Assembly: GCA_049976845.1 (NCBI GenBank)
Contig: JBMFHL010000001.1
Coordinates: 3,773 to 67,772, forward strand
Reading direction: 5' to 3'
Length of the DNA stretch: 64,000 nucleotides
From: Candidatus Micrarchaeia archaeon
GTDB lineage: Archaea > Micrarchaeota > Micrarchaeia > Micrarchaeales > CABMGC01
Shown: one piece after another, positions 1 to 52,454 of the stretch
Numbering within the stretch: position 1 is the first letter of the stretch
Layout: the number at the start of each line of letters is the position of its first letter
Notes under the pieces: model-generated
What the model was told of the DNA's origin: nothing
What the model saw: only the letters and a program-made list of their open reading frames with translations
The model's database searches: none
Program-made: the position numbers and the translations under genes

Positions 1-335
1 GATACAAAGTGAGGATGCTTGAGATGAAAGAGAGCATAAAGATAATAAGAGATGCATTCAAAAAAATGCCAGATGGCGACGAGCTTGGCTTGCCCATAAA
101 ACTTATTTCCCCTCCAATAAAGAACACAGAGGTTTTTGTGAAGAGGGAGCTGCCCAGGGGTGAAGGCTACATGTATATGCTTGCAGACAAGCAGAGGCCG
201 TATAGGCTTGCGATCAGGGCACCCGCATTTGTAAACCTATCTGCCCTCAGGTACCTGGCAAAAGGCAATAGGCTAGCGGATCTCTTTGCAATACTTGGAA
301 GTTTGGATTTGGTGATGGCAGATGTTGACAGGTAA
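1..335 (+). CDS. nuoD: NADH-quinone oxidoreductase subunit D, C-terminal fragment (5' end lies outside the window)
   Basis: The open frame runs from the window edge. The C-terminal sequence ...RAPAFVNLSAL...LADLFAILGSLDLVMADVDR matches the conserved NuoD/49-kDa terminus, and nuoH follows directly. Confidence 0.85.
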   Translation, partial: YKVRMLEMKESIKIIRDAFKKMPDGDELGLPIKLISPPIKNTEVFVKRELPRGEGYMYMLADKQRPYRLAIRAPAFVNLSALRYLAKGNRLADLFAILGSLDLVMADVDR

Positions 336-1311
336 TCTTGGCCCAATAGGCATTCAACTTGCGCCTGTAGGCACTGTTACAGGAATAATCGAGTATATTA
401 TAATTATATTTGTATTCATAGCTACATTCGATTATATTTTTGGCTGGTTTGAAAGAAAGACCATAGCAAAAGCGCAATTTAGGCACGGGCCTACATATGT
501 TGGTAAGTTTGGAATTCTGCAGAATCTGGCAGATATAGTAAAGCTAGTTGCAAAGGAGAACATAACCCCTAACAGTGCAGACAGACTGCTTTTCTCCACC
601 GCCATGCCACTCTTGCTTGCACTTTTTATATTTCTTGTTTTCCTAATACCTTTCTCTCCTAATTATGGGATTAGCATAAGCGTAGGGCTGCTTGCAATAT
701 TTGTAATGCTTTCGTTTGCTCCCCTTATTGTGTTCGTAAGCGGCGTATCAAGCGGAAACAAATTTGCCGGTATAAGCGCACAAAGGTCAATAATAATGAT
801 GTTGAGCTATGAGATGCCGTTAATTGTAGTTATTGCGTCTGTGGCGTTGTTTGCAGGAAGCTTCAACTTAGGAAATATAGTAAACCTGCAGAGTAACGCG
901 CCTTTCATTATCCTTATGCCTATTGGATTTTTGGTTTTTTTTATTGCTATGCTTGCAGAGCTTGAAAGGCCGCCTTTTGACTTGAGGGAAGCTGACAGCG
1001 AACTTATTGCAGGGTGGCTTACTGATTTCGGATCGCCATATTACGCAATTGCACTCTTCGTTGATTATACTAGAATGTTCCTAGGCTCATTGCTGATATC
1101 CTTGCTTTTCTTAGGTGGATGGCTTGGACCAGTGCTTCCGCCTGTGGTGTGGCTTCTTGCAAAGAGCTTTTTTGTGGCGTTTGTGATAGTGTTAGTAAGG
1201 GCAACTACAGTTAGAATGAGGCTTGATAGATTACTTAGGTTTGGGTGGTTCTGGCTCTTGCCTCTTGCTCTGGTTAATATTATATTAACCTTTTTATTGT
1301 TTGTAAGATAA
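322..1311 (+). CDS. nuoH: NADH-quinone oxidoreductase subunit H (membrane)
   Basis: A 329-aa polytopic protein. It carries NuoH/ND1 motifs (ERKxxAxxQxRxGP, LAELERPPFDLxEAxSEL) and overlaps the nuoD end by 14 nt. Confidence 0.9.
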   Translation: MLTGNLGPIGIQLAPVGTVTGIIEYIIIIFVFIATFDYIFGWFERKTIAKAQFRHGPTYVGKFGILQNLADIVKLVAKENITPNSADRLLFSTAMPLLLALFIFLVFLIPFSPNYGISISVGLLAIFVMLSFAPLIVFVSGVSSGNKFAGISAQRSIIMMLSYEMPLIVVIASVALFAGSFNLGNIVNLQSNAPFIILMPIGFLVFFIAMLAELERPPFDLREADSELIAGWLTDFGSPYYAIALFVDYTRMFLGSLLISLLFLGGWLGPVLPPVVWLLAKSFFVAFVIVLVRATTVRMRLDRLLRFGWFWLLPLALVNIILTFLLFVR

Positions 1312-1312
1312 G

Positions 1313-1684
1313 GTGTTTAATGTGATAGTTGAACCTTTCGTAAAAACTCTGCAAGGCCTCAAAGATAAAAGATTTACTACGAAGTTCCCTGAGGAGAGGG
1401 AGATCCAACCAGACAACTACAGAGGCATACATAGGCTTGACATAGAAACCTGCATAAGCTGCGGCGCTTGCGAGAGGATCTGCCCTAACAATACTATAAC
1501 AATGGTTGACACAAACACACAGAAGGGTAGGAGGAAGACTCCGGAGATAAATTTAGATAGATGCCTTTTCTGTGGGCTCTGCGAAGAGGTGTGCCCAACA
1601 CACTGCCTAACATTGACCAAAAATTACAAGCTTGAGGCGTTAGATAGGAGAGAATTCGTAAAGAGGCCTGAAGAATTGAAGTGA
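1313..1684 (+). CDS. nuoI: NADH-quinone oxidoreductase subunit I (2x[4Fe-4S] ferredoxin)
   Basis: Two CxxCxxCxxxCP clusters are present (CISCGACERICP and CLFCGLCEEVCP). The start is uncertain: GTG at 1313, or GTG at 1322, which has AGGTG 6 nt upstream. Confidence 0.9.
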   Translation: MFNVIVEPFVKTLQGLKDKRFTTKFPEEREIQPDNYRGIHRLDIETCISCGACERICPNNTITMVDTNTQKGRRKTPEINLDRCLFCGLCEEVCPTHCLTLTKNYKLEALDRREFVKRPEELK

Positions 1685-1688
1685 CAAG

Positions 1689-2174
1689 ATGATTAGCGAG
1701 ATTTTATTTGCATTGATTTCGCTGTTTACGCTAGCTTCTGCAATAGTCATGCTTTTGTCCAGGAAATTGCTTAGGGCGGTGATCGCATTGGCGTTCGCCT
1801 TTACTGGCAGTTCGCTGATTTTCCTAATGCTGCAACAGAGCATATTGGCGCTTCTCCAGCTCTTCGTATTTGTCGGTGGACTTTCAACTTACTTGATAGT
1901 AGCTGTAGCGGCAGAGCCTAAACTATCAAAGAATATGAATGCCAGGAATTTTGCTGCTGCTGCAACCGCCTTGCTTATTGCATTCTTTTTCATTGTATAT
2001 AAATTTGCATATGCAAATACTACCACTAGCACGTATAGCGGCAGCTTTGTCACGAGTGCAGGAATTGCTATAGGGCACTACTACGCTCTTCTTGGCATAA
2101 TAATTTTTCTTCCGTTTGCAAGCGCTATTGGAAGCATACTCCTCATTAAGAGGCTTACGAAGGTGGTGGTCTAA
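1689..2174 (+). CDS. nuoJ: NADH-quinone oxidoreductase subunit J
   Basis: A 161-aa hydrophobic protein in the J position of the operon, with a NuoJ-like LQLFVFVGG segment. Confidence 0.75.
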   Translation: MISEILFALISLFTLASAIVMLLSRKLLRAVIALAFAFTGSSLIFLMLQQSILALLQLFVFVGGLSTYLIVAVAAEPKLSKNMNARNFAAAATALLIAFFFIVYKFAYANTTTSTYSGSFVTSAGIAIGHYYALLGIIIFLPFASAIGSILLIKRLTKVVV

Positions 2175-2482
2175 TGCTGCAGTTGGTTTATTTTATGTAT
2201 TTGAGCTTCGCACTGCTCGCGGTAGGGCTTGCAGGTATAGTAGCTAGCAAGCATATTATTTTGATAGTGCTTTCTGTAGAGCTTTTGTTTGTCTCAAGCA
2301 TAATTTTGCTTGCCGCTTCTGCTTCATATGCAAGCACCGCAAATGGCGATGCTGCAGCAATGATAATCGCAGTTTGGGCTGCTGCTGCCTCTGACGTGAT
2401 TGTATTGATTGCATTATACATGGTAATAAAGTCGAGGGGAGCCAAATTTGACGTGACATTGTTCTCTGAATTGAAGGGATAA
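2174..2482 (+). CDS. nuoK: NADH-quinone oxidoreductase subunit K
   Basis: A 102-aa, 3-TM protein containing the conserved Glu in SVELLF. It occupies the operon position after nuoJ and overlaps it by 1 nt. Confidence 0.8.
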   Translation: MLQLVYFMYLSFALLAVGLAGIVASKHIILIVLSVELLFVSSIILLAASASYASTANGDAAAMIIAVWAAAASDVIVLIALYMVIKSRGAKFDVTLFSELKG

Positions 2483-2483
2483 T

Positions 2484-4223
2484 ATGATAGCTTTGTTCAT
2501 TATAGTGCCTTTCTTGCTTGCTCTGCTACTTTCAGTGTTCCTAAAAAGCGGAAAGTATATTGCATATGTTGCAATAGCTGCAAGTATTGCCAGCCTTGCG
2601 ATGCTACCTTTCATACAAAACGGAGAATATAGCGTAAGCTGGTTCTCTGTGAATGGGTTCAGCTTCAATATCTCCACTTATATAGCACAGTCAAATATTA
2701 TGCTGCTTGCGATAGTGCTCCTGCTTGCTCCCATTATATTCCTTTACTCTCTAGGTTTTATCTCTGTGCCAAGTGAGAGGAAGCGTTTTTACATAGAGAT
2801 GCTGAGCTTCACGGTAGCAATGCTTGCCTTTGCAATTGCTGGGAACTTCATAGTCTTCTTTATAGCCTGGGAATTCCTCAGCGTGATGAGCTATTTATTA
2901 ATAGGCTTCTGGTATAAGAATCCAAAAGCTGCAAGAGCTGCAAGGAAAGCCATAACTATTGTATTTATTGGAGACCTTTGCATTCTTGGTTCCCTTATCC
3001 TGTTTTGGAATGCATATAATTCGCTAGAATTTTCAAATATAATATATGAAGCTTCTTCAAATCCTACTACAATACCTATAGTGGCTGTAATGCTCTTGAT
3101 TGTTGCAATCTTTACTAAGTCTGCACAGTTCCCCTTCCATGAATGGCTGCCTGATGCAATGGAAGGCCCAGTGCCTGTATCTGCTTTCTTGCATTCTGCG
3201 ACAATGGTAAAGGCAGGAGTATTTGCCGCGATAGTATTATACCCTATCTTTTTCTATTCGAAGAGCCTTCAGTACTTCCTTGTGATAGGTATTTTGACCG
3301 CAATTATTGCAACAACTAATGCAATGAGAGAGAGGCATATAAAGAAGGTATTGGCATACTCTACAATCCAAGAGCTCGCACTGATGCTTGCAAGCATAGG
3401 GGTAGGTGCAGTTGCAGCTGCCTTATACTTCTTCTTCGCACAGGCTTTCTATAAAGCACTGCTCTTCTTCAGCTCTGGAGTTATGATGAAGTCTAACAAC
3501 AATACTGATTTATATTCTATTTATGGACTCAAACATAACAAGCTGATATATATAACAACACTTTTTGGAGTCCTATCCTTAGCAGGATTTATTCCTTTTG
3601 ACGGGTTCTTCTCTTCTGTTGTTGTTGGAGAGTCTTTCACAAGCAATATTCTTGCTTATGCAATAATTAGCATTATAGGTCTTGCTACAAGTTTCTATAT
3701 ATTCAGGTGGTTCTTTTTGTCTTCGAAGAGCACCAAGGACAGCAGCATTAACCTTTCATATGATTCACAGCCACACAGCATGGTTATTTCGATGGCTATC
3801 CTTGCTGCATTTACAATTATTGCTTCGCTTGTATTCTTCTTTACTAGTATTTACAGTAGTTTAAGGATTAGCTTCATTGATTCTGCTGTAGAAATTGCCA
3901 TGTTTTCCATAGGTTTTGCTGCAAGCTATTTTGTTTACGTAAAAGGTAGAACATATTTTAATCCTAAGCGTTTTGAAGGCATATTGCATAACAGCATTGT
4001 TACAAATGCGTTTTATCTTTATACGGCAATTTTCATTTACAAAATAGCCGAAGGGGTTGATTTGTTTGATCTTTACCTTAATGACCTGTTTGATTGGTTT
4101 GGCCATCTGGCTATGAAATTGGGGATCGGGGCAAATGATATTACAAACGGCCAAATTAGCCTTTACGCGGCTGCGCTGATATTGGGATTTGTTATCCTTG
4201 GGATTATAATGGTGATTACATAA
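2484..4223 (+). CDS. nuoL: NADH-quinone oxidoreductase subunit L (Mrp antiporter-like)
   Basis: A 579-aa polytopic protein with antiporter-like motifs (WEFLSVMSYLLIGFW, KSAQFPFHEWLPDAMEGPVPVSAFLHSATMVKAG). Confidence 0.85.
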   Translation: MIALFIIVPFLLALLLSVFLKSGKYIAYVAIAASIASLAMLPFIQNGEYSVSWFSVNGFSFNISTYIAQSNIMLLAIVLLLAPIIFLYSLGFISVPSERKRFYIEMLSFTVAMLAFAIAGNFIVFFIAWEFLSVMSYLLIGFWYKNPKAARAARKAITIVFIGDLCILGSLILFWNAYNSLEFSNIIYEASSNPTTIPIVAVMLLIVAIFTKSAQFPFHEWLPDAMEGPVPVSAFLHSATMVKAGVFAAIVLYPIFFYSKSLQYFLVIGILTAIIATTNAMRERHIKKVLAYSTIQELALMLASIGVGAVAAALYFFFAQAFYKALLFFSSGVMMKSNNNTDLYSIYGLKHNKLIYITTLFGVLSLAGFIPFDGFFSSVVVGESFTSNILAYAIISIIGLATSFYIFRWFFLSSKSTKDSSINLSYDSQPHSMVISMAILAAFTIIASLVFFFTSIYSSLRISFIDSAVEIAMFSIGFAASYFVYVKGRTYFNPKRFEGILHNSIVTNAFYLYTAIFIYKIAEGVDLFDLYLNDLFDWFGHLAMKLGIGANDITNGQISLYAAALILGFVILGIIMVIT

Positions 4224-4228
4224 TACCT

Positions 4229-5629
4229 TTGCTGATGTTACTTGTGCTGCTGCCTGTATTCGGGGCTCTTTTAGCTTTAGCGATTAGGAGAATGCCTGCA
4301 ATTATAAGTACTTCGACAGCCATTGTTGAACTAATCGTATTGTTGGCTGCCTTATATTACTTCGTTAGATATGGGTCGTTGCAGAATTCTTACAGTTATA
4401 TTTTGCCGCTAGGGATAAACTTTGGGTTTGCTCTTACTAATATAACGTTTGTATTTGCAATGCTTACAGCGATTGTTTTTTTGGCAGCCGCAATTGCAAA
4501 TATCGTTTTCATAAAGGAGGAGAAGCTTGGTTACAATTCTTTGTTTATGCTTGCTGAAAGCGCAGTTTTTGGAATCTTCCTTTCTGAAAATCTATTCTTA
4601 CTTTATCTATTCTGGGACACTGCAATTATAATATTCTTTTTCATGCTCTTCCATTTTGGAGGCTATGACAGGAGGTATGCTGCAGTGAAATTTGTATTGT
4701 ATTCCATATTCTCCAGCGCTATGCTGCTGATAGGTATAATGATGATCTACTTTTACATGCCTGTGCATACATTTAACATTTCGCAGGTAATCAGCTCAGC
4801 AGGATTGATTCCCCATACCGAGCAGCTTGAAGTACTTATAGTATTGATGCTTGCATTCATGGTGAAACTGCCAGTATTTCCATTTCATTCTTGGGCTCCC
4901 GATGCCTATTCAGAAGCGCCTGCTGGAAGTGCTATGTTATTGTCTGGAGTCCTGTCAAAATTTGGGGCATATGGAATGCTGCTTCTGTTTATTTCGTTGC
5001 CAATAGCAAAGACTTATTCAATTTATTTCGCAGAGCTTTTTGCTTTCTCTGCTATATACGCTGCCTTCGTTGCAATGAATCAAAAGGAATTAAGGAGGAT
5101 GCTTTCGTATTTGAGCATCAGCGAAATGGGAATTATTGCTTTTGGGATCTCCTCATTAAACTCTGTAGGAATCGCGGGAGCATTAGTGGGAATTTTTGGG
5201 CATGCTCTTATAATAGCGCTTCTGTTCCTGCTTGCTTTCTCTATAGAAAAGGCCTTTGGAACTTCGATATTGGCAAGGCTCAAGGGCTTGCTTAATGGTT
5301 CCAAGCTTATCGGTTATGTATTTATTTTTGGAGTGCTTGCCACACTGGGTCTTCCGCTTACAAGCGGATTCATATCAGACTTGCTGATACTGCTAGGTAG
5401 TGCAAAAAGCTTCGGACTGATTATACTGTTACCACTATTTGCCATACTAATAAATGGTGCGTACCTCTTCTGGGTCTATGAGAGGGTCTTCACAGCAAAA
5501 GAGGAACCACGTATATATGAAAAGCAGAATGGCTACATTTATGCGGCAATGGCATTATTGCTTGTATTTATTATAATTATAGGTATACTTCCTTCTATAA
5601 TCTTAAACAATCTTGGTGCTATAATATGA
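4229..5629 (+). CDS. nuoM: NADH-quinone oxidoreductase subunit M
   Basis: A 466-aa antiporter-like subunit (KLPVFPFHSWAPDAYSEAPAGSAMLLSGVLSKFG). The ORF opens at TTG 4229, and the first ATG is at 4235. Confidence 0.85.
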   Translation: MLMLLVLLPVFGALLALAIRRMPAIISTSTAIVELIVLLAALYYFVRYGSLQNSYSYILPLGINFGFALTNITFVFAMLTAIVFLAAAIANIVFIKEEKLGYNSLFMLAESAVFGIFLSENLFLLYLFWDTAIIIFFFMLFHFGGYDRRYAAVKFVLYSIFSSAMLLIGIMMIYFYMPVHTFNISQVISSAGLIPHTEQLEVLIVLMLAFMVKLPVFPFHSWAPDAYSEAPAGSAMLLSGVLSKFGAYGMLLLFISLPIAKTYSIYFAELFAFSAIYAAFVAMNQKELRRMLSYLSISEMGIIAFGISSLNSVGIAGALVGIFGHALIIALLFLLAFSIEKAFGTSILARLKGLLNGSKLIGYVFIFGVLATLGLPLTSGFISDLLILLGSAKSFGLIILLPLFAILINGAYLFWVYERVFTAKEEPRIYEKQNGYIYAAMALLLVFIIIIGILPSIILNNLGAII

Positions 5630-6993
5630 TAAGTTTAGTTTATATTTTCATCTTGCTCTTTGCCATTCTGGCACTAGGAAGCATGCTTGCTAGGATATTA
5701 AACAGAAAGGCACTGCTGTATGCTTTTTCTGTGCTTACTATTGCTGCAATTGCAGCCACTGCTGCAGATTTCATTTTTTCAGGCTCATTTGGAATTTATC
5801 TTGGTATTTTGTCGCTAAACCCATTTTCTTCTTTAATGATTATTCTTTTTGCTGCCGCAACAATACTTATTCTCTCTTACTCCCTAGAAGAAAGTACTTA
5901 CGAGGACTTTGCGCTTCTTCTTAGTTTTGACTTTATAGGAGCCAGTGTTGTGGCAATGGCAAATTCTTTAATTACTATCTTCCTTGGGCTGGAACTTGTG
6001 GCAATTCCAACTACAATAATGATTCTTCTTTCGAGAAAAAGCCTTGAGGCTGGAATAAAGTACTTTGTAATAACTGCAATTGCTTCATCCCTCTTGGCTT
6101 TTGGAATTGCGCTTGTTTACCTTTTTTCTGGAAATTTGCTTTTGTTATCGCAGCCTTATAGTGTGGGGCTTGCCTTTGCTTTGGTTATGTTCATAGCTGC
6201 AATTGGCATAGAAGCCTCTGTATTCCCTTTCAATCTTTGGGTCCCAGATGTATACCAAGGCTCCCCTTCTTTTGTAACATCGGTGCTTGGAGGAATAAAC
6301 AAAAAAGTAGGCCTTATAGCTTTGGTAGAAGTTGTGCTGATCATGTTTGGAACGTATACCATAGTAGCATACCTAGTTGCTGTACTTGCAATTCTTACGA
6401 TGTTTTATGGGAATCTTGGTGCATTAAGGCAACAGAACATTAAGAGGATGCTTGCGTATTCTTCAATATCACAAGCAGGCTATATTATGATTGGCTTAGC
6501 AACCTTAACTTCTTATGGAATCTCTGCGAGCATATTTCAAATATTTGCCCACATCTTTATGTTCGTTGGTGCATTCGCAATAGTCTCTTGGCTTGAGGGC
6601 AAAAACAGAGTAAATATCAATGAATATGTTGGCTTGAATAGTGAAAACAGGCTTGCTGCATTAGGTCTGAGCATTTTTCTTTTATCTATGGCAGGCATAC
6701 CGTTTACTGTGGGTTTCGTAGGGAAGTTTCTCCTCTTTTCAAGCGCGATATATGCAAACATGGCATGGCTTGCTATTCTAGGCATAATAAGCACTGTTAT
6801 TTCTATCTATTATTATTCGCGTGTGATAATTGCAATCTATACTAATAGAGCGGGCACAGTATATATTCACATGCATAGGAATGTGGCTGCTGTTGTTGCA
6901 GCATGTATAGTTATAGTGATTGCATTTGGCATATACCCGGGACCGGCAATCCATGCTGTTGAAAGCGCTGGCACTTATCTAATGCATGGCTAA
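5626..6993 (+). CDS. nuoN: NADH-quinone oxidoreductase subunit N
   Basis: A 455-aa antiporter-like subunit (FPFNLWVPDVYQGSPSFVTSVL, RMLAYSSISQAGYIM). It overlaps nuoM by 4 nt and is the last gene of the operon. Confidence 0.85.
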   Translation: MISLVYIFILLFAILALGSMLARILNRKALLYAFSVLTIAAIAATAADFIFSGSFGIYLGILSLNPFSSLMIILFAAATILILSYSLEESTYEDFALLLSFDFIGASVVAMANSLITIFLGLELVAIPTTIMILLSRKSLEAGIKYFVITAIASSLLAFGIALVYLFSGNLLLLSQPYSVGLAFALVMFIAAIGIEASVFPFNLWVPDVYQGSPSFVTSVLGGINKKVGLIALVEVVLIMFGTYTIVAYLVAVLAILTMFYGNLGALRQQNIKRMLAYSSISQAGYIMIGLATLTSYGISASIFQIFAHIFMFVGAFAIVSWLEGKNRVNINEYVGLNSENRLAALGLSIFLLSMAGIPFTVGFVGKFLLFSSAIYANMAWLAILGIISTVISIYYYSRVIIAIYTNRAGTVYIHMHRNVAAVVAACIVIVIAFGIYPGPAIHAVESAGTYLMHG

Positions 6994-7003
6994 ATCTAGA
7001 ACT

Positions 7004-9799
7004 TTATCTCTGACCATATGTTGACAAGAAGGAGAGGTACCTTCCTACCGCCATGCTTGGCGCAGAAGGTCTTGTCTTTTCTATCAGGTCTGTTAGATCC
7101 GACATTGTAATTTTAAGCTCTTTATTTGAATCCACACTTTTTTCCAATGCATTCATCTTAGCCTGTCTGCAGAGGTTCGCTATATCGGCACCTGTAAATC
7201 CTGGAGTCATTGAGGCAAGCACAGCAAAATTAATATTTGGTTCTAATGGTGCTTTCTTTAGGTACTGCTCGAATAAGCTTGCCCTGTCTTGTTCATTTGG
7301 AGGAGGAATAAATATGAGCTTGTCGAATCGGCCTGCCCTTAGTAGCGCAGAGTCTAGCGCATCTGGCCTGTTTGTCGCACCTACAAGCACTATATTATAC
7401 TTTGATTTCAGACCATCAAGTTCCTCGAGAAACTCACCTGTTAAGCTCACGCTAAGCTCACTTGCATTTTCTCTTGCAGGAACTACCGCATCTATCTCAT
7501 CGATAAATATTATAGACGGTGCATTCTCCTTTGCTCTATTGAATGCCTCTTTTATCTTTAATATTGACAAATTGGTGCCTGCTTTACTTATCTCTGAACC
7601 TGAAAGAAGTATCATATGCACATCCCCTATCTCTGAAGCAACTGCACGCATGAGCATGGTTTTGCCGGTGCCCGGAGGCCCAAAGAGCAGTATGCCCCTT
7701 ATGTTCTCTATGTCATATTTCTTGACAAGATCCGGATGCAGTATTGGTATCTCTACCGCTTCATATATTGCCTTCTTCGCTTCTTCAAGACCTACTACAT
7801 CATCGAGAGATACTGTACTGGTATCTTTATCTTCGCGCTCTGGATGCACCCTCCTTTCGTAATCAAGCTTGAATGTCGTATATTCTTCTATCTGACTCAG
7901 CGATGTTGAAGGTTTTGTAAGCTTTATTATCCTTACCATATCGCCCATTGTTATTTGCAGGATTTTGTTCATTGAGCTTGCTTCTTCTGCGGTCTCTCGT
8001 GCAGCCTCATCACATACATTTTTAATGTCAGCGCCAGAATATCTTTCGGATATTTCTGCAAGCTTGTGATAATCAATATCTTCCACTACAGGAAGCTTGG
8101 AGAGGTAGTATCTGAAGATCTTCTCTCTGCCGCTTGCGTCTGGAAGCGGCATGTATATTATCTTATCGAATCTGCCAGGCCTCATTATGCTTGGATCTAA
8201 TAGCTGTGGCGTGTTTGTTGCACCAACTATGACTACGCCTTCTATCTTCTGGAAGCCGTCCATTTCGCTTAGCAGTGTAGATAGGATCTGCTTACCAGAT
8301 TCTGACTCCTGTATCTCCCTGCTTCCTGCTATGCCATCAATCTCATCAAAGAACAACACGCATGGGGTATGCTTTTTGGCAGTGGCAAATATTCTTGAAA
8401 GAGTCTGAGCACTTTCCCCGGAGTATGGAGAGAGTATTGACGATGCTTTTACATAGAAGAATCCTGCCCTAATGTCATTGGCTAGAGCCCTCATTATCAG
8501 TGTTTTGCCAGTGCCTGGAGGCCCAAAGAGCAGTATACCTTTTGTTGGATTTATTCCGTATGCTCCGGACAGCTCACGGTGTTCTATTGGCGCAATTATT
8601 GCTTCCTTCAGCTCTGTTTTTGTTTCTTCGTAGTTTGCAACATCGTCAAGCGTTTCGTTCGTGCCACTTGTCAGATCCTCGAAGCCTTCACCAAAATGGG
8701 ACCTGAAATCGCGCTTCATCACTTCGAGAGCCTTGATTACTGGCACATCATTAAACTCCAAGAACAATATTATAAGAGGAGTAACTAGAAAGCCTAGCAA
8801 TGGGTAATAAACAAAGCTGTTTTTAGTTAGGTATGAAAGAATTATGTATGTGATAGGTATTATTATGCTAAAGAGGCTTGCTTCTGAGCCCTTGTATTTG
8901 GACCTGCTTTTTATTATATAATTGCTCATTACGAATACCACTATTATCCAAATAACGAGTTGCACTATCGCGATGTTACCTTCTATTGCAAGTGGCAGCA
9001 TTGCCAAATAGAAACTGGTAGGTATGCCCCCAGTTACCTTAAAACCAAAGAAATTATCTACTGAATTTGCCCATGCCGAACCTAAGGATGTTATGTTTGG
9101 CGCCGTCTTTGTTGGCATTAGGTATTGTGCATAGCTATTGGAGATTATAAACGAGTGGGCTAATGATGCGTTGAAGACTATACTGCCAGTATTTTGCATG
9201 TTCATTATGCCTGAGAGCATAATTACAATTAAAACTACTACAGCTACGCTTATAATGCCCCTCTTTGCCCCTACAAGCAGAACCATGAAGACAAGTGCAG
9301 GTATCTCAATAAAATAGCCCAAATAAGAGAATGGGAGGGCAATAAGCAGATAAGTCAATGTTATTATACGATAGTGCTTGAAGCCCAATAGGAGAGAGAC
9401 GCTTACGAAAATTGTGAAGAGCCATGCAAGCAGAGGAGCTTGATATATAAACATTGGTAATGTTTCAAAAAACAGAGTCATAAGCCCAAAGAGAGGATGT
9501 ATCATTGTTACAATAAAAGTAAGCACCAGCAATGGTATTATTATTATTGGAGGTAAAAACGGGAGGGCGATGGAGACGCTTGCTAATGTGAAAGTAGTTG
9601 CGATTGCATCAGGAAAATTTGGATGTGAAGTAAAATCTTTCAGTATGTCTTTGAGCCAGTAAGTCGAGAGAGGCAAGCTCCTTTTAATTGATACTTCGCT
9701 CTTTTGCTTTGGCCTTTTACCTAGTACTACACTTTTCTTTTTCTTTTTGTTCTGGGTACTGGGCGCCGCCTTAGTAACCGTGCTCTGACCATCGGGCAT
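7004..9799 (-). CDS. Double AAA+ ATPase (Cdc48/VAT-like D1-D2) fused to an N-terminal polytopic membrane domain
   Basis: Two complete AAA modules are present. Each has Walker A GPPGTGKT, a Walker B (FFDEIDGI / FIDEIDAV) and a second region of homology (ATNTPQLLDPSIMRPGRFD / ATNRPDALDSALLRAGRFD). They are preceded by about 350 aa containing a poly-Lys stretch and many hydrophobic helices. Confidence 0.85.
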   Translation of the reverse strand: MPDGQSTVTKAAPSTQNKKKKKSVVLGKRPKQKSEVSIKRSLPLSTYWLKDILKDFTSHPNFPDAIATTFTLASVSIALPFLPPIIIIPLLVLTFIVTMIHPLFGLMTLFFETLPMFIYQAPLLAWLFTIFVSVSLLLGFKHYRIITLTYLLIALPFSYLGYFIEIPALVFMVLLVGAKRGIISVAVVVLIVIMLSGIMNMQNTGSIVFNASLAHSFIISNSYAQYLMPTKTAPNITSLGSAWANSVDNFFGFKVTGGIPTSFYLAMLPLAIEGNIAIVQLVIWIIVVFVMSNYIIKSRSKYKGSEASLFSIIIPITYIILSYLTKNSFVYYPLLGFLVTPLIILFLEFNDVPVIKALEVMKRDFRSHFGEGFEDLTSGTNETLDDVANYEETKTELKEAIIAPIEHRELSGAYGINPTKGILLFGPPGTGKTLIMRALANDIRAGFFYVKASSILSPYSGESAQTLSRIFATAKKHTPCVLFFDEIDGIAGSREIQESESGKQILSTLLSEMDGFQKIEGVVIVGATNTPQLLDPSIMRPGRFDKIIYMPLPDASGREKIFRYYLSKLPVVEDIDYHKLAEISERYSGADIKNVCDEAARETAEEASSMNKILQITMGDMVRIIKLTKPSTSLSQIEEYTTFKLDYERRVHPEREDKDTSTVSLDDVVGLEEAKKAIYEAVEIPILHPDLVKKYDIENIRGILLFGPPGTGKTMLMRAVASEIGDVHMILLSGSEISKAGTNLSILKIKEAFNRAKENAPSIIFIDEIDAVVPARENASELSVSLTGEFLEELDGLKSKYNIVLVGATNRPDALDSALLRAGRFDKLIFIPPPNEQDRASLFEQYLKKAPLEPNINFAVLASMTPGFTGADIANLCRQAKMNALEKSVDSNKELKITMSDLTDLIEKTRPSAPSMAVGRYLSFLSTYGQR

Positions 9800-9854: not shown

Positions 9855-9965
9855 CCCGTTGTAGCTCAATGGCTAGAGCGGCCGGCTGTAGTTTGGAAGC
9901 TTTTGATTTGTAGAAGTTGTCAAAAGGATACCGGCAGGTTGGGTGTTCGACTCACCCCAACGGGA
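9855..9965 (+). tRNA. tRNA-Tyr (GTA) with a 38-nt intron at the canonical 37/38 position (intron 9892..9929)
   Basis: Hand-folded cloverleaf:
- Acceptor stem CCCGTTG/CAACGGG, giving C1:G72, the archaeal Tyr identity pair.
- D stem GCTC/GAGC.
- Anticodon stem GCCGG/CCGGC.
- Anticodon loop CT-GTA-G|intron|A.
- T arm GGGTG-TTCGACT-CACCC.
- Discriminator A.
- No CCA is encoded. Confidence 0.85.
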
Positions 9966-9980
9966 ATTTATGGTGATTAT

Positions 9981-10253
9981 GTGTTTGTTGTATTGTTAGG
10001 CTACTTTGCCGGCACACTTACTACTATGGCAGTGTTGCCCGAGATCTTCAGGCTTAGGAAAACAAAAAGAGCTGGAGAGCTTTCATATGCATGGCTTTCG
10101 ATTGTATTTATAGGCCTTATCTCTTGGTCCATTTATGGATTTTTTATAAACAGCATGCCTTTAATTGTGCTTAGCTTATTACAATCCCTGCTTTATTTTA
10201 TACTTATAGCAATGAAAGCTTCATATACTAAGGGATTTAAATCTCAGCGCTAA
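9981..10253 (+). CDS. SemiSWEET / PQ-loop family sugar transporter (3-TM)
   Basis: LGYFAGTLTTMAVLPEIFRLRKTKRAGELS...WSIYGFFINSMPLIV aligns with the SemiSWEET pattern (TT.SFLPQ....K.TKST..IS...W..YG......PI). The ORF-track start at 9903 lies inside tRNA-Tyr, so I place the start at the in-frame GTG at 9981. ATG 10026 is an alternative. Confidence 0.75.
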   Translation: MFVVLLGYFAGTLTTMAVLPEIFRLRKTKRAGELSYAWLSIVFIGLISWSIYGFFINSMPLIVLSLLQSLLYFILIAMKASYTKGFKSQR

Positions 10254-43546: not shown

Positions 43547-43697
43547 GTAATCACAATTAAAACTTGCTTGAAAAGGATATTAAATTTAGATGGTTAAAAA
43601 CAAGACTTAATGTACTAATTACTCTCGTCATGCCATCCTCAAAAGGTTTATAAGGATTGAATTCAATATAATATAAAAACGGCCAGTGCTGATACCT

Positions 43698-45614
43698 ATG
43701 TCAAATGAATCAGAGGAGTATAACGCTTCTAAAATAATAGTGCTAGAAGGTGTGCAAGGAGTAAGGAAAAGGCCGGCAATGTATATAGGGTCAACAGGTT
43801 CAAGCGGAGTGTTGCACTTGCTATTTGAAGTAATTGATAATGCCGTAGATGAAGCTATCGCCGGCTACTGTAAAAATATTATAGTGCATCTAACCGAGGC
43901 AGAAAATGGTGACATTGCAGAAGTGATAGATGACGGCAGAGGGATACCTATAGACATAATGCCAAAGTATAACAAGAGTGCCTTAGAGGTAATAATGACC
44001 TCCTTGCATTCAGGCGCCAAATTTAGCAACGATGTATATAAAACTGCCGGGGGTCTTCATGGTGTTGGCCTTACCGTTGTAAATGCACTATCTTCAGTGC
44101 TTGAGGTCAGGGTCAAAAAAGGAGGAAAGGAGTACATGCAAACCTATAGTAGGGGACTTCCAACTTCTGAGCTAAAAGAAGTGGGAGTTGCCACGGATAC
44201 AGGAACTTCAATAAAATTTCAGCCGGATCCTGAGATATTCCCTTCTACAAAATTTGATTCTGATCTATTAAAAGAGAGGTTGAGATATACAAGTTTCTTG
44301 AATCCTGGGCTTAAACTATTCTTTATAGATGATAGGTTTAATTCCCACGAAGAAAGCCAGTACTATTCGCAAAATGGGCTTGCAGATTTTCTTTCAGAAC
44401 TAAATAAAAATACAACCACCATAACCAGTCCGATACATTACAAAAAGCAGGTTGATAATGTGATGGTTGAAATAGCATTGCAATACAACAACAGCTACGA
44501 CGAGAAAATAGAATCATTTGTAAATAGTATAAAGACAAACGACGGCGGCACGCACGTTATAGGTTTTCATGCAGCATTGACAAGGGCAATATCAAACTAC
44601 CTGTTGCAAAATAAAAATGCGAGCAGCAAGAAAGAGGTAAAAATTACAGGAGAAGATGTAAGAGAGGGCCTTTCAGCAATAGTAAATGTACTGATGCAGA
44701 ATCCAGAGTTCGAAGGGCAAACAAAAGAAAGACTTGGAAATACGCAAATAAAAAGCATAGTTGAAAGCAGCGTTTATTCTTTCCTTTCACAATACTTAGA
44801 AGAGCATCCTAGTGATGCAAAGGCAATAGTAGAGAAAGCGACAAATGCAAGTTTAGCTAGAGAGAGTGCAAGGAAGGCCAGGGAGCTAGTGAGAAAGAAG
44901 AGTATATTTGATGGCGCGATACTACCAGGCAAATTGGCAGACTGCATAGAATCTGATCCAGAAAAATGTGAAATATTTATAGTAGAAGGCGAGAGCGCAG
45001 GCGGCTCAAGCAAGCAAGGTAGGGACAAGAGGATACAAGCAATACTTCCATTAAGAGGGAAAATTCTTAATGTCGAAAAAGCAAGCGATGAAAGAATATT
45101 TGATAATGCGGAAATACATACAATGGTCACAGCATTTGGGACAGGAATAAAAGAAACGTTTAATGTGGAAAACATAAGGTACAAAAAAATAATCATTATG
45201 ACGGATGCTGATGTTGATGGGAGCCATATAAGGACGTTGCTCCTCACGTTTTTCTATAGGTACCTCAAAAAAATATTAGACCTGGGGTATGTATACATAG
45301 CGCAGCCTCCACTATATAAAATCTCTAAAGGGAAAGAAGAGTATTACTGCTACAGCGATGCAGAATTAGAAGCTAAAATGAAAGAACTGGGAGACAAAGT
45401 AAATCTACAAAGGTACAAAGGATTAGGAGAAATGAACCCTGAGCAATTGTGGGAAACTACAATGAATCCAGAAAAACGCATCCTCAAAAAAGTTCTTGTA
45501 AACAATGCCGAAAGGGCAGAAAGATTGTTCACAATACTCATGGGTATTGATGTTCAGCAACGTAGAAAATTCTTGGAGGAGCATTCAGGCGAAGCCGCCT
45601 TCCTAGATATATAG
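43698..45614 (+). CDS. gyrB: DNA gyrase subunit B
   Basis: GHKL ATPase motifs (LEGVQGVRKRPAMYIGS, HLLFEVIDNAVDE, GGLHGVG), Toprim motifs (EIFIVEGESAGGS, MTDADVDGSHI) and YKGLGEMNPEQLWETTM are present. I chose ATG 43698. The ORF track opens at GTG 43686. Confidence 0.95.
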   Translation: MSNESEEYNASKIIVLEGVQGVRKRPAMYIGSTGSSGVLHLLFEVIDNAVDEAIAGYCKNIIVHLTEAENGDIAEVIDDGRGIPIDIMPKYNKSALEVIMTSLHSGAKFSNDVYKTAGGLHGVGLTVVNALSSVLEVRVKKGGKEYMQTYSRGLPTSELKEVGVATDTGTSIKFQPDPEIFPSTKFDSDLLKERLRYTSFLNPGLKLFFIDDRFNSHEESQYYSQNGLADFLSELNKNTTTITSPIHYKKQVDNVMVEIALQYNNSYDEKIESFVNSIKTNDGGTHVIGFHAALTRAISNYLLQNKNASSKKEVKITGEDVREGLSAIVNVLMQNPEFEGQTKERLGNTQIKSIVESSVYSFLSQYLEEHPSDAKAIVEKATNASLARESARKARELVRKKSIFDGAILPGKLADCIESDPEKCEIFIVEGESAGGSSKQGRDKRIQAILPLRGKILNVEKASDERIFDNAEIHTMVTAFGTGIKETFNVENIRYKKIIIMTDADVDGSHIRTLLLTFFYRYLKKILDLGYVYIAQPPLYKISKGKEEYYCYSDAELEAKMKELGDKVNLQRYKGLGEMNPEQLWETTMNPEKRILKKVLVNNAERAERLFTILMGIDVQQRRKFLEEHSGEAAFLDI

Positions 45615-45622
45615 GTATAGAT

Positions 45623-48016
45623 ATGGAAAAAACAGAGCCAGTCCAATTGGATGAAGAATTGCAATCAAGCTATATTGACTATGCCATGAGTGTTATAATA
45701 GGCAGAGCCATACCTGATGCCCGAGACGGTCTCAAGCCTGCGCAAAGAAGAATACTTTATGCAATGTATAGCATAAACAATTTGCATGACCAGCCTACTA
45801 AAAAGAGTGCAAGAATAGTTGGAGAAGTAATAGGTAAATATCATCCACATGGGGACGTCGCAGTTTATGATACTTTAGTAAGGATGGCTCAAGACTTTTC
45901 AATGAACCACGTGATGGTTGAAGGGCAGGGAAATTTTGGTTCAATAGACGGAGATCCACCTGCAGCAATGAGATATACCGAGGTGCGTCTCACTAGCATT
46001 GCAGAAGAATCATTAAACGATTTGGATAAGAACACTGTGGAATTTGTATCAAACTTCGACAACACCGAAAAAGAGCCCATAGTATTGCCATCAAAAATAC
46101 CAAATCTTTTGATAAATGGTGCATCCGGGATTGCCGTGGGTGTAGCAACAAGCATACCCCCGCATAACCTGAGCGAAGTATGTGATGCAATAATACAGGT
46201 ATTAGATAAGGATACAACAATAGAAGATATACTAGAAATAATAAAAGGCCCTGATTTTCCTACAGGCGGCATAGCAATAATGTCTGGAAATGCCTATAAT
46301 GGGTATAAGTACGGCAAAGGGCAGATTACTGTAAAAGCAAAGGCAGAGATAAAAGAAAAAGAGAGAAAAATAATAGTAACAGAAATACCTTATAATGTCA
46401 ACAAAGCCATGCTCATACAAAATATAGCAGAGCTCGTAAGAGACAAAAAAATAAATGGCATAACTGACATAAAAGATGAGAGTGACAAAGAAGGAATAAG
46501 GATAGTAATAGAGTTTAGAAACGGAGAAAACGGCGAGAGTCTTTTGAACTCGTTATATAAGCACACGCAACTTGAAATAACATTCCCTATAATAAATCTC
46601 GCAATAGTTGGAAAGGAATTAAAGAATTTTAACATATTGCAGTTGATAAATACTTTCATCGAGCACAGAAGGGAAATAATAAAGAAAAGAAGCGAGTTTG
46701 AACTTAATAAGTCAAAAGACCGTGTTCACATATTAGAAGGCCTTCTAACAGCAATCAATAGCATAAATGAAATAGTAAAGCTAATAAAGGAAAGCGCTTC
46801 AGTAAGCGATGCAAAAGAGAGGTTGGTGAAAGCATACAATTTAAGTGAAAAGCAGGCATCTGCCATTTTAGAGATGAAGCTTAGCAGATTAACCCATCTT
46901 GAGTCAGACTCTATAAACAAGGAGAGAGCAGAGCTTGCAGGCAAAATAGATTATTACAATTCACTATTGTCAGATCCAAAGAAAATAGATTCAGTAATTA
47001 AGAACGAAATCAAAGAAATAAAAGAAAAATATGGCAGGAAGAGAAGAACGGAAATAATTAAAATGGAAGAGGAAATAACGCTGAAGGAAGAAGATCTAAT
47101 AAGCAATGAAAAAGTGACGGTCATATACACAAATTCCGGATATATAAAAAGACTTGGCATAGAAAGCTACAAAGAACAAGCAAGAGGGGGCAAGGGAGTA
47201 ATAGCAATAAACCTTAAGGAGGGAGACTATGCAAAGCAAATAATCACCTGCTACACTAAAGATTACCTGCTATGTATATCAGATAAGGGAAGAGCGTACT
47301 GGCTTAAGGTATACAGAATACCAGAAGGGAAGCGGTATTCAGAAGGCAAGAGTATAGTAAATTTGCTTAACTTAAAAGACGAGAAAATAGTTATAATAAT
47401 GGTACTGAATGACATAGAACGATCAAGCATATCTTTGCTAACAAAAAGCGGATTAGTAAAGAAAATGAATGCACGTCTATTCTCCAAGCCTAGGTCAAGC
47501 GGCGTTACCGCAATCGCCTTAAGGGAAGGCGACGCAATAATCGATGCAATAACTTATACAAATGAAAAGTATATCTTCATAACAACAAAGAAAGGCAAAG
47601 CAATCAAATTCGAAGATTCGAAAATAAGGTTTACTGGAAGATCTTCAATGGGTGTGCGTGGCATAAGGCTATCAAACAATGACGAAGCAAAAAACATAAT
47701 AGCAGCAGGAGATGTTGGCTATATACTTACTGTTACTGAAAATGGCTATGGCAAATTGACAGAAGTGCTTAATTACAGGCTGCAAAATAGGGGCGGCGGC
47801 GGCGTCCTAAATATCAGAATATCGGAAAAAACAGGTTATGTAGCAAAATCCTTATTCTTGAGTGGCGAAGCAAATATAATATTAATAAATTCCTCTGGCA
47901 TAACGATTTCATTCAATGCAAGTAGTATAAGGATTACAGGGAGAAATGCAAGTGGGGTAAGATTAATGAGAGTCGAAGAAGGGATGAAAGTAGTAGATGC
48001 AAAGATAATGCAATAA
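45623..48016 (+). CDS. gyrA: DNA gyrase subunit A
   Basis: The sequences YAMSVIIGRAIPDARDGLKPAQRRILY and GKYHPHGD, the catalytic region AAMRYTE, and the GyrA-box QARGGKGV in the beta-pinwheel C-terminal domain are present. Confidence 0.95.
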   Translation: MEKTEPVQLDEELQSSYIDYAMSVIIGRAIPDARDGLKPAQRRILYAMYSINNLHDQPTKKSARIVGEVIGKYHPHGDVAVYDTLVRMAQDFSMNHVMVEGQGNFGSIDGDPPAAMRYTEVRLTSIAEESLNDLDKNTVEFVSNFDNTEKEPIVLPSKIPNLLINGASGIAVGVATSIPPHNLSEVCDAIIQVLDKDTTIEDILEIIKGPDFPTGGIAIMSGNAYNGYKYGKGQITVKAKAEIKEKERKIIVTEIPYNVNKAMLIQNIAELVRDKKINGITDIKDESDKEGIRIVIEFRNGENGESLLNSLYKHTQLEITFPIINLAIVGKELKNFNILQLINTFIEHRREIIKKRSEFELNKSKDRVHILEGLLTAINSINEIVKLIKESASVSDAKERLVKAYNLSEKQASAILEMKLSRLTHLESDSINKERAELAGKIDYYNSLLSDPKKIDSVIKNEIKEIKEKYGRKRRTEIIKMEEEITLKEEDLISNEKVTVIYTNSGYIKRLGIESYKEQARGGKGVIAINLKEGDYAKQIITCYTKDYLLCISDKGRAYWLKVYRIPEGKRYSEGKSIVNLLNLKDEKIVIIMVLNDIERSSISLLTKSGLVKKMNARLFSKPRSSGVTAIALREGDAIIDAITYTNEKYIFITTKKGKAIKFEDSKIRFTGRSSMGVRGIRLSNNDEAKNIIAAGDVGYILTVTENGYGKLTEVLNYRLQNRGGGGVLNIRISEKTGYVAKSLFLSGEANIILINSSGITISFNASSIRITGRNASGVRLMRVEEGMKVVDAKIMQ

Positions 48017-50807: not shown

Positions 50808-52454
50808 TCAGCTAAAGAAATTAACAGTAGCATTGCCTTTCGACAATGCCGTAACATTATTTGAGGTATAGTTTAGGATGATCTTCAAATTCAAATTGAA
50901 TGGTAAACCAGAAATTATCTGGTTCATGCTGTAGCATTTGGCAGTAAGCAATGTATTGCTGCCCAAATTTACAAGGCTATCAATTTTTGTTGGCATGCCC
51001 GTACCATCTTCAGAGCACAAAACATTGTTTATTTTTACTGGGTAAAGTTTCTCATTCCCTAATCGGAATGTGATACTTCCACTAGCAAATGTTACGTTTG
51101 CGCATCCAAATCCTGCTATACTGCATTTGCTTGCAAATCCAGATTCAAAAGCAACAGACTTTCCAGAGAAATTGAGGAGCTTCAGCAGGTTTACATTTAA
51201 TGGAACAGCTTCCAATACTAGCGATTCATTGGTAAGGGCAAAGACGCTTAAATTATAAGGTGGTAAATACTCACTTGTCCTAACAAGGCCTACTGGCATA
51301 ATCTTTCCATAGGTCTGGAACAGGTATGTGCTGCAATAGCTCTGGTTGTTTACACTGCTTATTATGCCATAGCACTTATTATCTCCAATATTCTCATTTA
51401 TGCTTGGTGCAACAAATTCATTCCCATATTCAAATATCTTTTCTGCCGAAAAACTTGCCGTTGGGAAGTAGTACGAGTCATAGCTCGCAAGAAGAGTAGA
51501 ATTAGCCAAATCAAAATCTTCGAATTTAGAGGATTCTGTTGTAATTGGCATATAATTGCTGTTATTTGCTCCAATTAAGCCAATGCAGGAAGAAGGGCCC
51601 TTGTAGGCAACGCTCTTTATCCATCCATCTGAGTACCAGCTGCAAAGGCTCACATTTTTTGCCAATTCTGCTACAGTCACATTAGTACCATTTGCTTCAT
51701 ATGTGCTAATGCTTGCATTTGTGCCGTTCAGTGCTATCTTTACAAGGTCTGGATTTAGGTACCCTCTTATCCACACTGAATATATCGAGCTGCCATTAGT
51801 ATAATTAGCATAAGCAACATTAATTTGCCTTATGTATGGGCTTATCATTGTTATAAGCGAAGAGAAGAAAGTATATGGCAAGTTAATGTCTGTATAATCG
51901 AAAATCGGCAAAGAGTAATTCATGTTCAGGTAAAGCGCAACCAAACTTCCTTGCTGGCTCATGTTAATCTCAGTGAGGTATGTCAAGTTTCTTCCAGTTA
52001 TTGGAGAATATGCCTCAGCAGGCTGCGGCGCATTCACATAAACATATTTGGTTGCCTGTGCATTGCTTCTATCTACAATGTTGTAGAATTTTGCTGGGTC
52101 TGCTATTGCCATAACAGAATAGTTTCCAGGCTCAGTAGGGGTGAAATTAAAATATATAATTGCTTCTTTGCCTGCAGGCACAGTAATCCGGTAGTTTGTA
52201 CTTGAATTGTAAGTTAAATTTTCGCTGTTCTTTACCAAAACTTCAAATCCTATTTCATCTACATTGCTGCTGCCAGTATTGTTTATTATTATCGGCAAAT
52301 CTACCTGCCTTAGCGGGAAGAGGTTCTGCAGATTCGAAGTGCCAAAGCTAACATGCAAGTCTATGCCTGGCTGGTAATAATACCTAAAATAAAGTGCTAT
52401 TAAAACAATGAAAATGAAAAATACTACCAAAGCATAATCTATCTTTTCCATCAA
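50808..52454 (-). CDS. Membrane-anchored extracellular protein, CARDB-like beta-sandwich at the N-terminus, very rich in N-glycosylation sequons
   Basis: An N-terminal hydrophobic anchor (YALVVFFIFIVLIALYF) is followed by a CARDB-like block (LPIIINNTGSSNVDEIGFEVLV...VPAGKEAIIYFNFTPTEPGNYSVMAIAD). I hand-counted about 25 N-x-S/T sequons and saw several Cys pairs. Confidence 0.6.
   Translation of the reverse strand: MMEKIDYALVVFFIFIVLIALYFRYYYQPGIDLHVSFGTSNLQNLFPLRQVDLPIIINNTGSSNVDEIGFEVLVKNSENLTYNSSTNYRITVPAGKEAIIYFNFTPTEPGNYSVMAIADPAKFYNIVDRSNAQATKYVYVNAPQPAEAYSPITGRNLTYLTEINMSQQGSLVALYLNMNYSLPIFDYTDINLPYTFFSSLITMISPYIRQINVAYANYTNGSSIYSVWIRGYLNPDLVKIALNGTNASISTYEANGTNVTVAELAKNVSLCSWYSDGWIKSVAYKGPSSCIGLIGANNSNYMPITTESSKFEDFDLANSTLLASYDSYYFPTASFSAEKIFEYGNEFVAPSINENIGDNKCYGIISSVNNQSYCSTYLFQTYGKIMPVGLVRTSEYLPPYNLSVFALTNESLVLEAVPLNVNLLKLLNFSGKSVAFESGFASKCSIAGFGCANVTFASGSITFRLGNEKLYPVKINNVLCSEDGTGMPTKIDSLVNLGSNTLLTAKCYSMNQIISGLPFNLNLKIILNYTSNNVTALSKGNATVNFFS

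Follow-up and report, generated by a model that had tools for sequence, protein, structure and literature searches.

A protein that joins a Cdc48-like pair of ATPase modules to a large polytopic membrane domain raises the question of what such a motor would do at an archaeal membrane. The gene in question lies on the minus strand of a 64,000-nucleotide stretch of contig JBMFHL010000001.1 from a Candidatus Micrarchaeia archaeon (the window, by which we mean the whole stretch analyzed), where, as the first-pass annotation of this DNA had stated, positions 7004..9799 form a single uninterrupted open reading frame (ORF) of 931 amino acids (aa); its start codon is ATG. In a full-length profile search, the product matched NCBI entry P0084 at 100% identity, under the title ‘AAA family ATPase [Candidatus Micrarchaeia archaeon]’. 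We propose, with confidence that reaches about the halfway mark, that it is a membrane-integrated, hexameric type-II AAA unfoldase acting as a membrane-protein dislocase. From N- to C-terminus the protein runs from a basic tail through about ten transmembrane (TM) helices and a short, conserved linker to a pair of complete classic AAA modules (D1 and D2); these four parts map onto the window as listed (pLDDT, predicted local distance difference test).

7004..9799, minus strand: complete ORF of the TM-domain plus D1–D2 AAA ATPase, stop codon 7004-7006
9674..9799, minus strand: residues 1-42, disordered Lys/Arg-rich tail, predicted cytoplasmic (pLDDT <50)
8735..9673, minus strand: residues 43-355, amphipathic helix 44-57 and ten-helix membrane domain, predicted N-in/C-in (AlphaFold, charge pattern)
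8555..8734, minus strand: residues 356-415, linker (helix 357-377), predicted cytoplasmic, and first helix of the D1 module (AlphaFold secondary structure)
7850..8554, minus strand: residues 416-650, D1 AAA module (Walker A 426-433, Walker B 481-486, arginine fingers R540/R543)
8411..8431, minus strand: residues 457-463, D1 pore loop 1, S-P-Y-S-G-E-S (motif alignment; intein site in seven relatives)
7007..7849, minus strand: residues 651-931, D2 AAA module (Walker A 707-714, Walker B 763-768, arginine fingers R821/R824)

The fusion itself has first to be trusted, as the first-pass annotation had named an assembly artefact joining two genes among the outcomes that would overturn its reading. 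The same fusion is present in other genomes. An alignment of the N-terminal membrane domain (N-domain) scanned against one genome per species recovered 28 loci, nearly all labeled Micrarchaeota and two labeled Marsarchaeota; 27 of them carry a complete gene, and every one of these 27 encodes a protein of 907-967 aa in which Walker A and Walker B each occur twice. Compared with the window protein, the 28 orthologues average 47% identity for the membrane domain, 70% for the linker, 72% for D1 and 64% for D2, which places the TM–AAA junction among the best-conserved parts of the protein. The suggestion that an assembly or frameshift error has fused a membrane-protein gene to an AAA gene is thus refuted, and we give it next to no chance: nothing was found in its favor, the identical junction occurs in distant orders, in many metagenomes and in 27 independently assembled genomes, the linker that spans it ranks with the best-conserved segments, and the full-length profile search adds at least 120 further protein clusters with the same architecture. 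Judged by this conservation, the fusion is real and under selection.

The extent of the family depended on how it was searched for. Two word-indexed searches with the N-domain returned only five matches and one match, respectively, because the word pre-filter starves on hydrophobic sequence, and the family is much larger than these counts imply; of the five relatives found with the N-terminal 375 residues, at least two end at contig ends, and for one a Micrarchaeota assembly runs on into the AAA module. An exhaustive profile search gave 58 matches among 1.84 billion representative proteins, with the N-domain at the N-terminus in every full-length match, and all eight distant members that were scanned contain two AAA modules. 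The clusters from the full-length search span about 885-990 aa, inteins extending some to 1072-1393 aa, and are labeled Micrarchaeia, Micrarchaeales, Micrarchaeaceae, Anstonellales, Burarchaeum, Bilamarchaeaceae, one “ainarchaeum” and ‘VCP-like ATPase [uncultured archaeon]’; the database names of members are generic only (‘AAA family ATPase’, ‘VCP-like ATPase’). The window protein carries the hallmarks of the group, an N-terminal ten-helix domain of about 300 aa, Y-Q-x-P and G-x-K-R motifs and two AAA modules in a total of about 890-970 aa. By sequence comparison, the TM10–D1–D2 ATPases are a real, strongly conserved protein family, and one that appears essentially confined to the Micrarchaeota (DPANN archaea). 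Their near-confinement to this phylum, together with their wide spread within it, makes them a candidate signature function for it.

The membrane half agrees with, and extends, what had been read from the sequence at the outset. Residues 1-45 are Lys-rich as described (12 K/R against 2 D/E, with NKKKKK at 17-22), overlapping hydrophobic windows cover residues 65-355 on the Kyte-Doolittle scale, and the ‘at least eight’ hydrophobic segments become ten membrane-length helices in two independent AlphaFold runs (62-78, 84-100, 102-120, 122-138, 143-157, 161-176, 178-199, 274-297, 303-325 and 332-349). They are preceded by an amphipathic helix (44-57), which we read as interfacial, and interrupted by a 64-residue loop (200-263) that holds the previously noted Asn/Ser-rich stretch along with short helices and two sequons (N210-A-S and N235-I-T). 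AlphaFold2 modeled residues 1-415 from a 31-sequence alignment with a mean pLDDT of 85, a predicted template-modeling score (pTM) of 0.80 and a helical core above pLDDT 90, and a full-length run gave these helices again.

The charges of the loops follow the positive-inside rule. Averaged over the 28 orthologues, the net charge is +6.9 for the tail and +1.9, +2.0 and +2.7 for the loops TM4/5, TM6/7 and TM8/9, whereas the alternate loops are neutral or acidic and the long sequon-bearing loop falls on the opposite side. An N-in/C-in topology fits this pattern, with the tail and three basic loops facing inward and the sequon loop outward, and would place both AAA modules in the cytoplasm. The basic N-terminal tail is a feature of the window’s clade only (full-length identity of at least 48%), many distant members lacking it, and so is not a family trait. 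Family-wide, Y119, Q120, F157, G177, K179, N203 and P315 are invariant or nearly so; Y119-Q120, F157 and N203 are predicted at the outer face and G177-x-K179 in a cytoplasmic loop. The membrane domain contains no conserved Cys, His or Ser-His pattern that would hint at a hydrolase.

No relative of this domain emerged. The search of the N-terminal region alone that had been proposed as a check was run on the first 370 aa and matched no characterized family, with nothing significant in Pfam and nothing in NCBIfam. A hit to YbjM (Pfam, E 0.0098, below the cut-off) was rejected as its signal did not recur in 14 distant members, whose membrane domains share no recurrent Pfam signal. Foldseek found no fold match in the PDB (best E 0.7, TM-score ≤0.17) or in BFVD, and an internal duplication was rejected after hhalign of the two halves gave a probability of 0.3%. 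Judged by these sequence and model comparisons, the ten-helix domain is a new membrane-protein family with no detectable relatives in Pfam, NCBIfam, the PDB or BFVD. Its size (about 300 residues), its mean identity of 47% and its invariant polar and aromatic positions indicate that it is more than an anchor, and the linker below it is short (about 35-65 residues) and so well conserved that D1 must sit close beneath the bilayer.

The ATPase half also bears out the initial description, in that two complete AAA modules are present, with GPPGTGKT at 426 and 707, DEID at 485-488 and 767-770 and arginine fingers in each. Pfam assigns two stretches of PF00004 (261 bits) and two of AAA_lid_3 (PF17862), and the features that define classic AAA proteins are all found (Walker A, Walker B, sensor-1, a second region of homology with arginine fingers, and a lid). 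The Walker A Lys, the Walker B Asp-Glu, the sensor-1 Asn and the arginine fingers of both rings are invariant in 15 divergent members, and this conservation suggests that both rings are catalytically competent. A comparison with solved structures paired residues 371-931 with VAT, p97 and Cdc48 (E ~1e-110, 32-34% identity); with yeast Cdc48 the alignment runs collinearly in a single stretch (query 5-524, Cdc48 203-718), and a Foldseek comparison of the full-length model with p97 aligned about 572 columns (E 4e-38), all of them in D1–D2. This collinearity matches the ATPase half to known protein-threading unfoldases.

The protein is nevertheless not a Cdc48 with a simple exchange of N-domains. 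The earlier description of a Cdc48-like fusion whose soluble N-domain has been replaced holds for the architecture, and Pfam finds neither CDC48_N nor CDC48_2, in line with the missing double-psi-barrel domain that had been pointed out; it does not hold as a plain swap, as both modules are nearer to Cdc48 D2 than to D1 and the protein falls below the CDC48 cut-off. The scores lie outside all three curated families considered: 460.1 bits against a curated cut-off of 802.65 for TIGR01243 (CDC48), 405.7 against 600 for TIGR01241 (FtsH) and 416-438 against 500 for PAN (TIGR01242 / NF003069), the last over the AAA modules only. D2 is clearly of the D2 type (216 versus 169 bits with VAT), and D1 is slightly nearer the D2 than the D1 of p97/CDC48A (194-197 versus 173-176 bits) and ends in its own D2-type tail helix, KPSTS...EEYTTF. 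An identity with the anti-phage ATPase IetA/IteA was rejected: NF042959 scores 220 bits against a cut-off of 510, the PADLOC matches cover the AAA modules only and reflect generic similarity, and the neighbors are nuo, tRNA and ribosomal genes, not an IetA/IetS-type defense locus.

These affinities bear on the idea that the protein is a general unfoldase tethered to the membrane, in which the ten helices would merely localize or regulate a Cdc48-like motor working on cytoplasmic substrates, possibly in place of a soluble Cdc48/VAT. The ATPase half is closest to VAT, p97 and Cdc48, and the 64-kb window holds no second Cdc48-like or PAN gene. CDC48 has been reported as the only AAA subgroup found in all archaea (PMC3493965), so a DPANN lineage might have remodeled it. 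We nonetheless consider this unlikely, since a 300-residue, ten-helix domain with 47% identity and invariant polar positions far exceeds the needs of an anchor, known AAA membrane anchors using one or two helices, and since the family lies below the CDC48 curated cut-off and lacks the canonical HbYX tail of a proteasomal Cdc48.

The pore loops set the two rings apart. Pore loop 1 of D1 has the consensus S-P-Y-x-G-E-S, with Tyr in 23 of the 28 orthologues and Gly in all 28, and the corresponding D2 loop varies (K-[Y/A/N/T/V]-G; K-A-G in the window protein). With D1 abutting the membrane and retaining its Tyr loop, the membrane-side ring bears the conserved substrate-gripping aromatic. In seven family clusters (P0037, P0059, P0060, P0152, P0159, P0178 and P0197; for example L033:8001-13739) an intein of 177-497 aa, in some cases with a LAGLIDADG endonuclease domain, interrupts this loop between E462 and S463, and P0037 has a second intein before C480, adjoining the Walker B strand. 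Inteins typically occupy the most constrained sites of essential proteins; we know of no earlier description of the D1 pore loop as an intein site.

The C-terminus is conserved in all 28 orthologues as [LF]-S-x-Y-G-x-R (...LSTYGQR in the window protein, residues 925-931, 7007-7027), and recalls the L-Y-G end of p97 followed by two further residues. HbYX tails are defined by Tyr or Phe at the penultimate position (PMC3493965). In this family the conserved residue is Tyr, Phe or His at position -4 in all 28 orthologues, so the HbYX assignment was rejected and proteasome docking by the usual route is unsupported.

Taken as a dislocase, the protein would work as follows. The membrane domain, ten helices per subunit and so about 60 per hexamer, would sit directly atop the D1 ring, taking the position held in soluble Cdc48/VAT by the N-domain that binds substrates and cofactors. 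It would recognize membrane or envelope proteins (in the window’s clade, 14-helix NuoM probably among them) and deliver part of the chain to the pore, where the conserved D1 Tyr loops would grip it. ATP hydrolysis by both rings would thread the chain from the membrane face through D1 and D2 into the cytoplasm, so that the protein would be dislocated for degradation or reset for re-insertion or assembly. Architecture, topology signals, a full set of catalytic residues in both rings, conservation across the family and gene linkage are what the analysis shows; we infer the hexameric state, the threading direction (by analogy with Cdc48, FtsH and Msp1) and the substrates and their fate; to our knowledge, all classic AAA motors solved with substrate thread from the N-terminal to the C-terminal face. 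Extraction or dislocation of membrane proteins, which the first-pass annotation had put forward as plausible, has become more so because of the aromatic D1 pore loop, the short conserved linker and the membrane- and envelope-protein neighbors described below, and it stays an interpretation.

In its action the protein would most resemble FtsH, Msp1 or a membrane-recruited Cdc48, while by sequence it is closest to Cdc48/VAT. It shares with Cdc48, p97 and VAT the collinear tandem of classic-clade AAA modules, the catalytic completeness of both rings and a tail helix after D2, and Cdc48 in eukaryotes extracts membrane proteins (in endoplasmic-reticulum-associated degradation, ERAD, and from mitochondria and chloroplasts). 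It differs from them in having a ten-helix membrane domain where they have a double-psi-barrel and beta-clam N-domain, in the somewhat D2-like character and separate tail helix of D1, in the missing HbYX tail and, compared with p97, in keeping the aromatic pore loop in D1 and a degenerate one in D2, the opposite of the p97 arrangement. Moreover, Cdc48 reaches membranes through separate adaptor or channel proteins, whereas the Micrarchaeota protein has its membrane part in the same chain. FtsH and the mitochondrial AAA proteases likewise place a classic AAA ring close beneath an N-terminal membrane segment, and membrane-protein extraction and quality control, including that of respiratory-complex subunits, is the established role of FtsH; FtsH, however, combines a pair of TM helices with a single AAA module and an M41 zinc protease at the C-terminus, against ten helices, two modules and no protease here. 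The absence of a protease domain, as previously remarked, is borne out by the lack of any match to peptidase M41 or to the Lon protease domain. PAN, with a coiled-coil and OB N-domain and a single AAA module, is similarly distinct.

Among archaeal systems, LonB is also a membrane-inserted AAA+ machine and is thought to carry out membrane-protein quality control, but its two TM helices lie inside one AAA+ module and it has a Lon protease domain, neither of which is found here. The MBA proteins of Sulfolobus are the only named archaeal group of membrane-bound AAA proteins that we found (PMC3493965). MBA1 and MBA2 (Serek-Heuberger et al. 2009, cited in PMC3493965) resemble the present family in being archaeal, membrane-bound, ring-forming, related to the Cdc48 clade and free of a protease domain. 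They reportedly have one predicted TM helix in an extension of about 50 residues and a single AAA module, and occur only in Sulfolobales; on that description, the ten helices, two modules and Micrarchaeota distribution set the present family apart. Msp1/ATAD1 and Pex1–Pex6 are protease-free AAA motors that pull proteins from membranes for re-use or degradation, but Msp1 consists of one AAA module on one TM anchor, and Pex1–Pex6, a type-II double ring at the membrane, is soluble and depends on another membrane protein as its tether; a polytopic membrane domain is missing from both. In the literature searched, no account of a Cdc48-like double ring joined to such a domain was found, so the concern that the TM10–D1–D2 architecture might already have been described is not borne out there.

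A bolder version of the dislocase holds that the six ten-helix domains form a gate, so that a protein-conducting membrane part and a Cdc48-type motor would together make a self-contained retrotranslocon in one polypeptide. We entertain this tentatively and on balance doubt it. Were it so, it would give prokaryotes a one-gene equivalent of eukaryotic ERAD (Hrd1/Derlin together with Cdc48), and conceivably a route for polypeptide uptake from outside the cell in host-dependent DPANN archaea. The dislocase itself, if borne out, would be a new design, combining a Cdc48-like double ring with a large undescribed membrane domain, and would show a Cdc48-type motor working directly at an archaeal membrane, with a bearing on the origins of ERAD-like systems. 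Most archaea have no FtsH, and beyond LonB the removal and remodeling of their membrane proteins is poorly understood. Because one gene would supply both membrane part and motor, without adaptors or ubiquitin, the system would suit structural and mechanistic studies of how AAA motors draw hydrophobic helices from a bilayer.

Evidence on substrates comes from the gene neighborhood. In the window, the distal part of a nuo operon (9-6993, ending in nuoL, nuoM and nuoN) converges on the ATPase gene.

4229..5629, plus strand: nuoM (466 aa), whose orthologue is linked to the TM–AAA gene throughout the window’s clade
5626..6993, plus strand: nuoN (455 aa), which closes the nuo operon and converges on the TM–AAA gene, leaving 10 nt between them

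The distance to the nuoN stop had been given as 11 nt; from the nuoN end at 6993 to the stop codon at 7004-7006 it measures 10 nt. Within the window’s clade, 25 of 28 loci encode a NuoM orthologue no more than 5 kb from the TM–AAA gene; in the other three, the side concerned has hardly any flank. The linkage takes three forms.

Window and 8 further loci: nuoM within a nuo operon converging on the TM–AAA gene
7 loci: nuoM on the same strand, 1.1-2.1 kb upstream (about 4.7 kb in L015)
9 loci from 8 sub-clades: nuoM on the same strand, immediately downstream

In the last arrangement the spacing is -14 to +62 nt, with ATGA stop/start overlaps in L012, L013 and L019 and a TAAATG junction in L014. 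A linkage that survives rearrangement and bears signatures of translational coupling argues for a functional link with 14-helix NuoM, and the operon-like association provides a concrete first substrate hypothesis.

Several side observations attach to these loci. In many Micrarchaeota (L011-L014, L017-L020, L022; L023-L029) nuoM lies outside the nuo operon, in which nuoN and nuoL remain, and stands either directly after the TM–AAA gene or about 1.1-2.1 kb upstream of it; in L012-L014, L017, L020 and L022 it is the only nuo gene within the available flank. An ORF of family F8 (about 245 aa) lies between the TM–AAA gene and nuoN in L004, L007, L008, L010 and L021 (e.g. L004:3482-4210) and is not present in the window.

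The same linkage is what would be expected of a dedicated biogenesis or maintenance factor, one that assembles, inserts or recycles NuoM or the membrane arm of complex I (or the S-layer in other orders) and takes no part in general quality control, much as Bcs1 serves complex III and the m-AAA protease serves respiratory complexes. That nuoM follows directly, its start codon overlapping or nearly abutting the stop of the TM–AAA gene, in 9 loci spread over 8 sub-clades, and keeps within 5 kb through all three arrangements speaks for this view. Yet the window gene, being convergent with nuoN, stands outside the operon, at least one cultivated Micrarchaeote is reported to be entirely without complex I (PMC5498576), and the partner is not the same in every lineage.

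In the more distant orders there are no nuo genes near the TM–AAA gene. Instead, in four of the seven distant loci whose flank is long enough (L031, L033 and L034 of the Anstonellales and L035, “ainarchaeum”), it is adjoined by the gene for an S-layer protein (PF05124; 841-1015 aa) and that for a secreted protein of about 700 aa, P700, which has a signal peptide, no Pfam match and 17-24% identity between loci and may be a second envelope component. The two genes are orthologous across the four loci (L031:11009-17527, L033:14151-19076, L034:11017-15910 and L035:25-5458), are inverted in L035, and stay linked while most other flanking genes differ. This persistence again favors a dedicated factor, but tblastn found neither an S-layer nor a P700 partner near the window gene or in the 27 close loci, and L036-L038 have no nuoM or S-layer neighbor. 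The S-layer linkage is thus not a family-wide rule, and the high conservation of the protein across lineages with differing partners argues for a common, more general activity. With its partner changing between lineages and absent from L036-L038, we judge a dedicated factor rather improbable. As a separate observation, a glycosyltransferase (GT5/GT4, glycogen-synthase-like) and GH57 gene pair stands beside the TM–AAA gene in three distant loci, in both orientations (L032:1303-3715, L034:5323-7738 and L035:11244-13586).

The secreted neighbors also raise the possibility of an ATP-driven exporter or importer, in which the hexamer would form a membrane channel and the motor would push S-layer subunits out or pull external or host polypeptides in. 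The signal-peptide-bearing S-layer and P700 genes adjoin the ATPase gene in four divergent loci, several highly conserved residues (Y119, Q120, P122, W126, E165, P167 and N203) have predicted positions at the outer face, and dependence on a host is known from cultivated Micrarchaeota (PMC5498576). With the N- to C-face threading discussed above, the chain would here move out of the membrane into the cytoplasm, so export by the usual mechanism is ruled out; the S-layer linkage does not extend to the window’s clade or to L036-L038, and nothing observed points to a channel. We rate transport of this kind as very unlikely.

Set against the dislocase are some of the same observations. The linkage varies by lineage, nuoM in one and the S-layer in others, and may in part be inherited synteny, while neither partner is found beside L036-L038. 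Convergent as it is with the nuo operon, the window gene itself cannot share a transcript with that operon. The protein has neither a protease domain nor a canonical HbYX tail, leaving hand-off to the 20S proteasome unsupported, and with a pTM of 0.55 for the full-length monomer model the relative placement of the domains is not established.

The wider window is an ordinary stretch of archaeal core chromosome, with genes for ribosomal protein S3, primase, DNA gyrase B and A, an Lhr helicase and Orc1/Cdc6 as well as tRNA genes, and the genomic setting is housekeeping, not a mobile or defense island. The DNA gyrase B and A genes (43686-48016, plus strand) are followed by an Lhr-type helicase gene (929 aa; 48018-50807, minus strand), directly downstream of which lies a 548-aa ORF (50808-52454, minus strand) with no Pfam match at E 0.001. 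Two tRNA genes match Rfam and were not reported by ARAGORN (9855-9965, plus strand, 111 nt, 54.9 bits; 37433-37518, minus strand, 86 nt, 46.4 bits), and their lengths suggest intron-containing archaeal tRNAs. The first of them occupies the divergent gap 56 nt upstream of the TM–AAA start codon and overlaps the first 21 codons of an ORF at 9903-10253 (plus strand), so the TTG start of that ORF is probably over-called. The ORF encodes a small membrane protein (about 85-116 aa) that matches nothing in Pfam and by eye resembles a three-helix PQ-loop/SemiSWEET-type candidate, and its family (F4) is a conserved divergent upstream neighbor of the TM–AAA gene in 9 loci.

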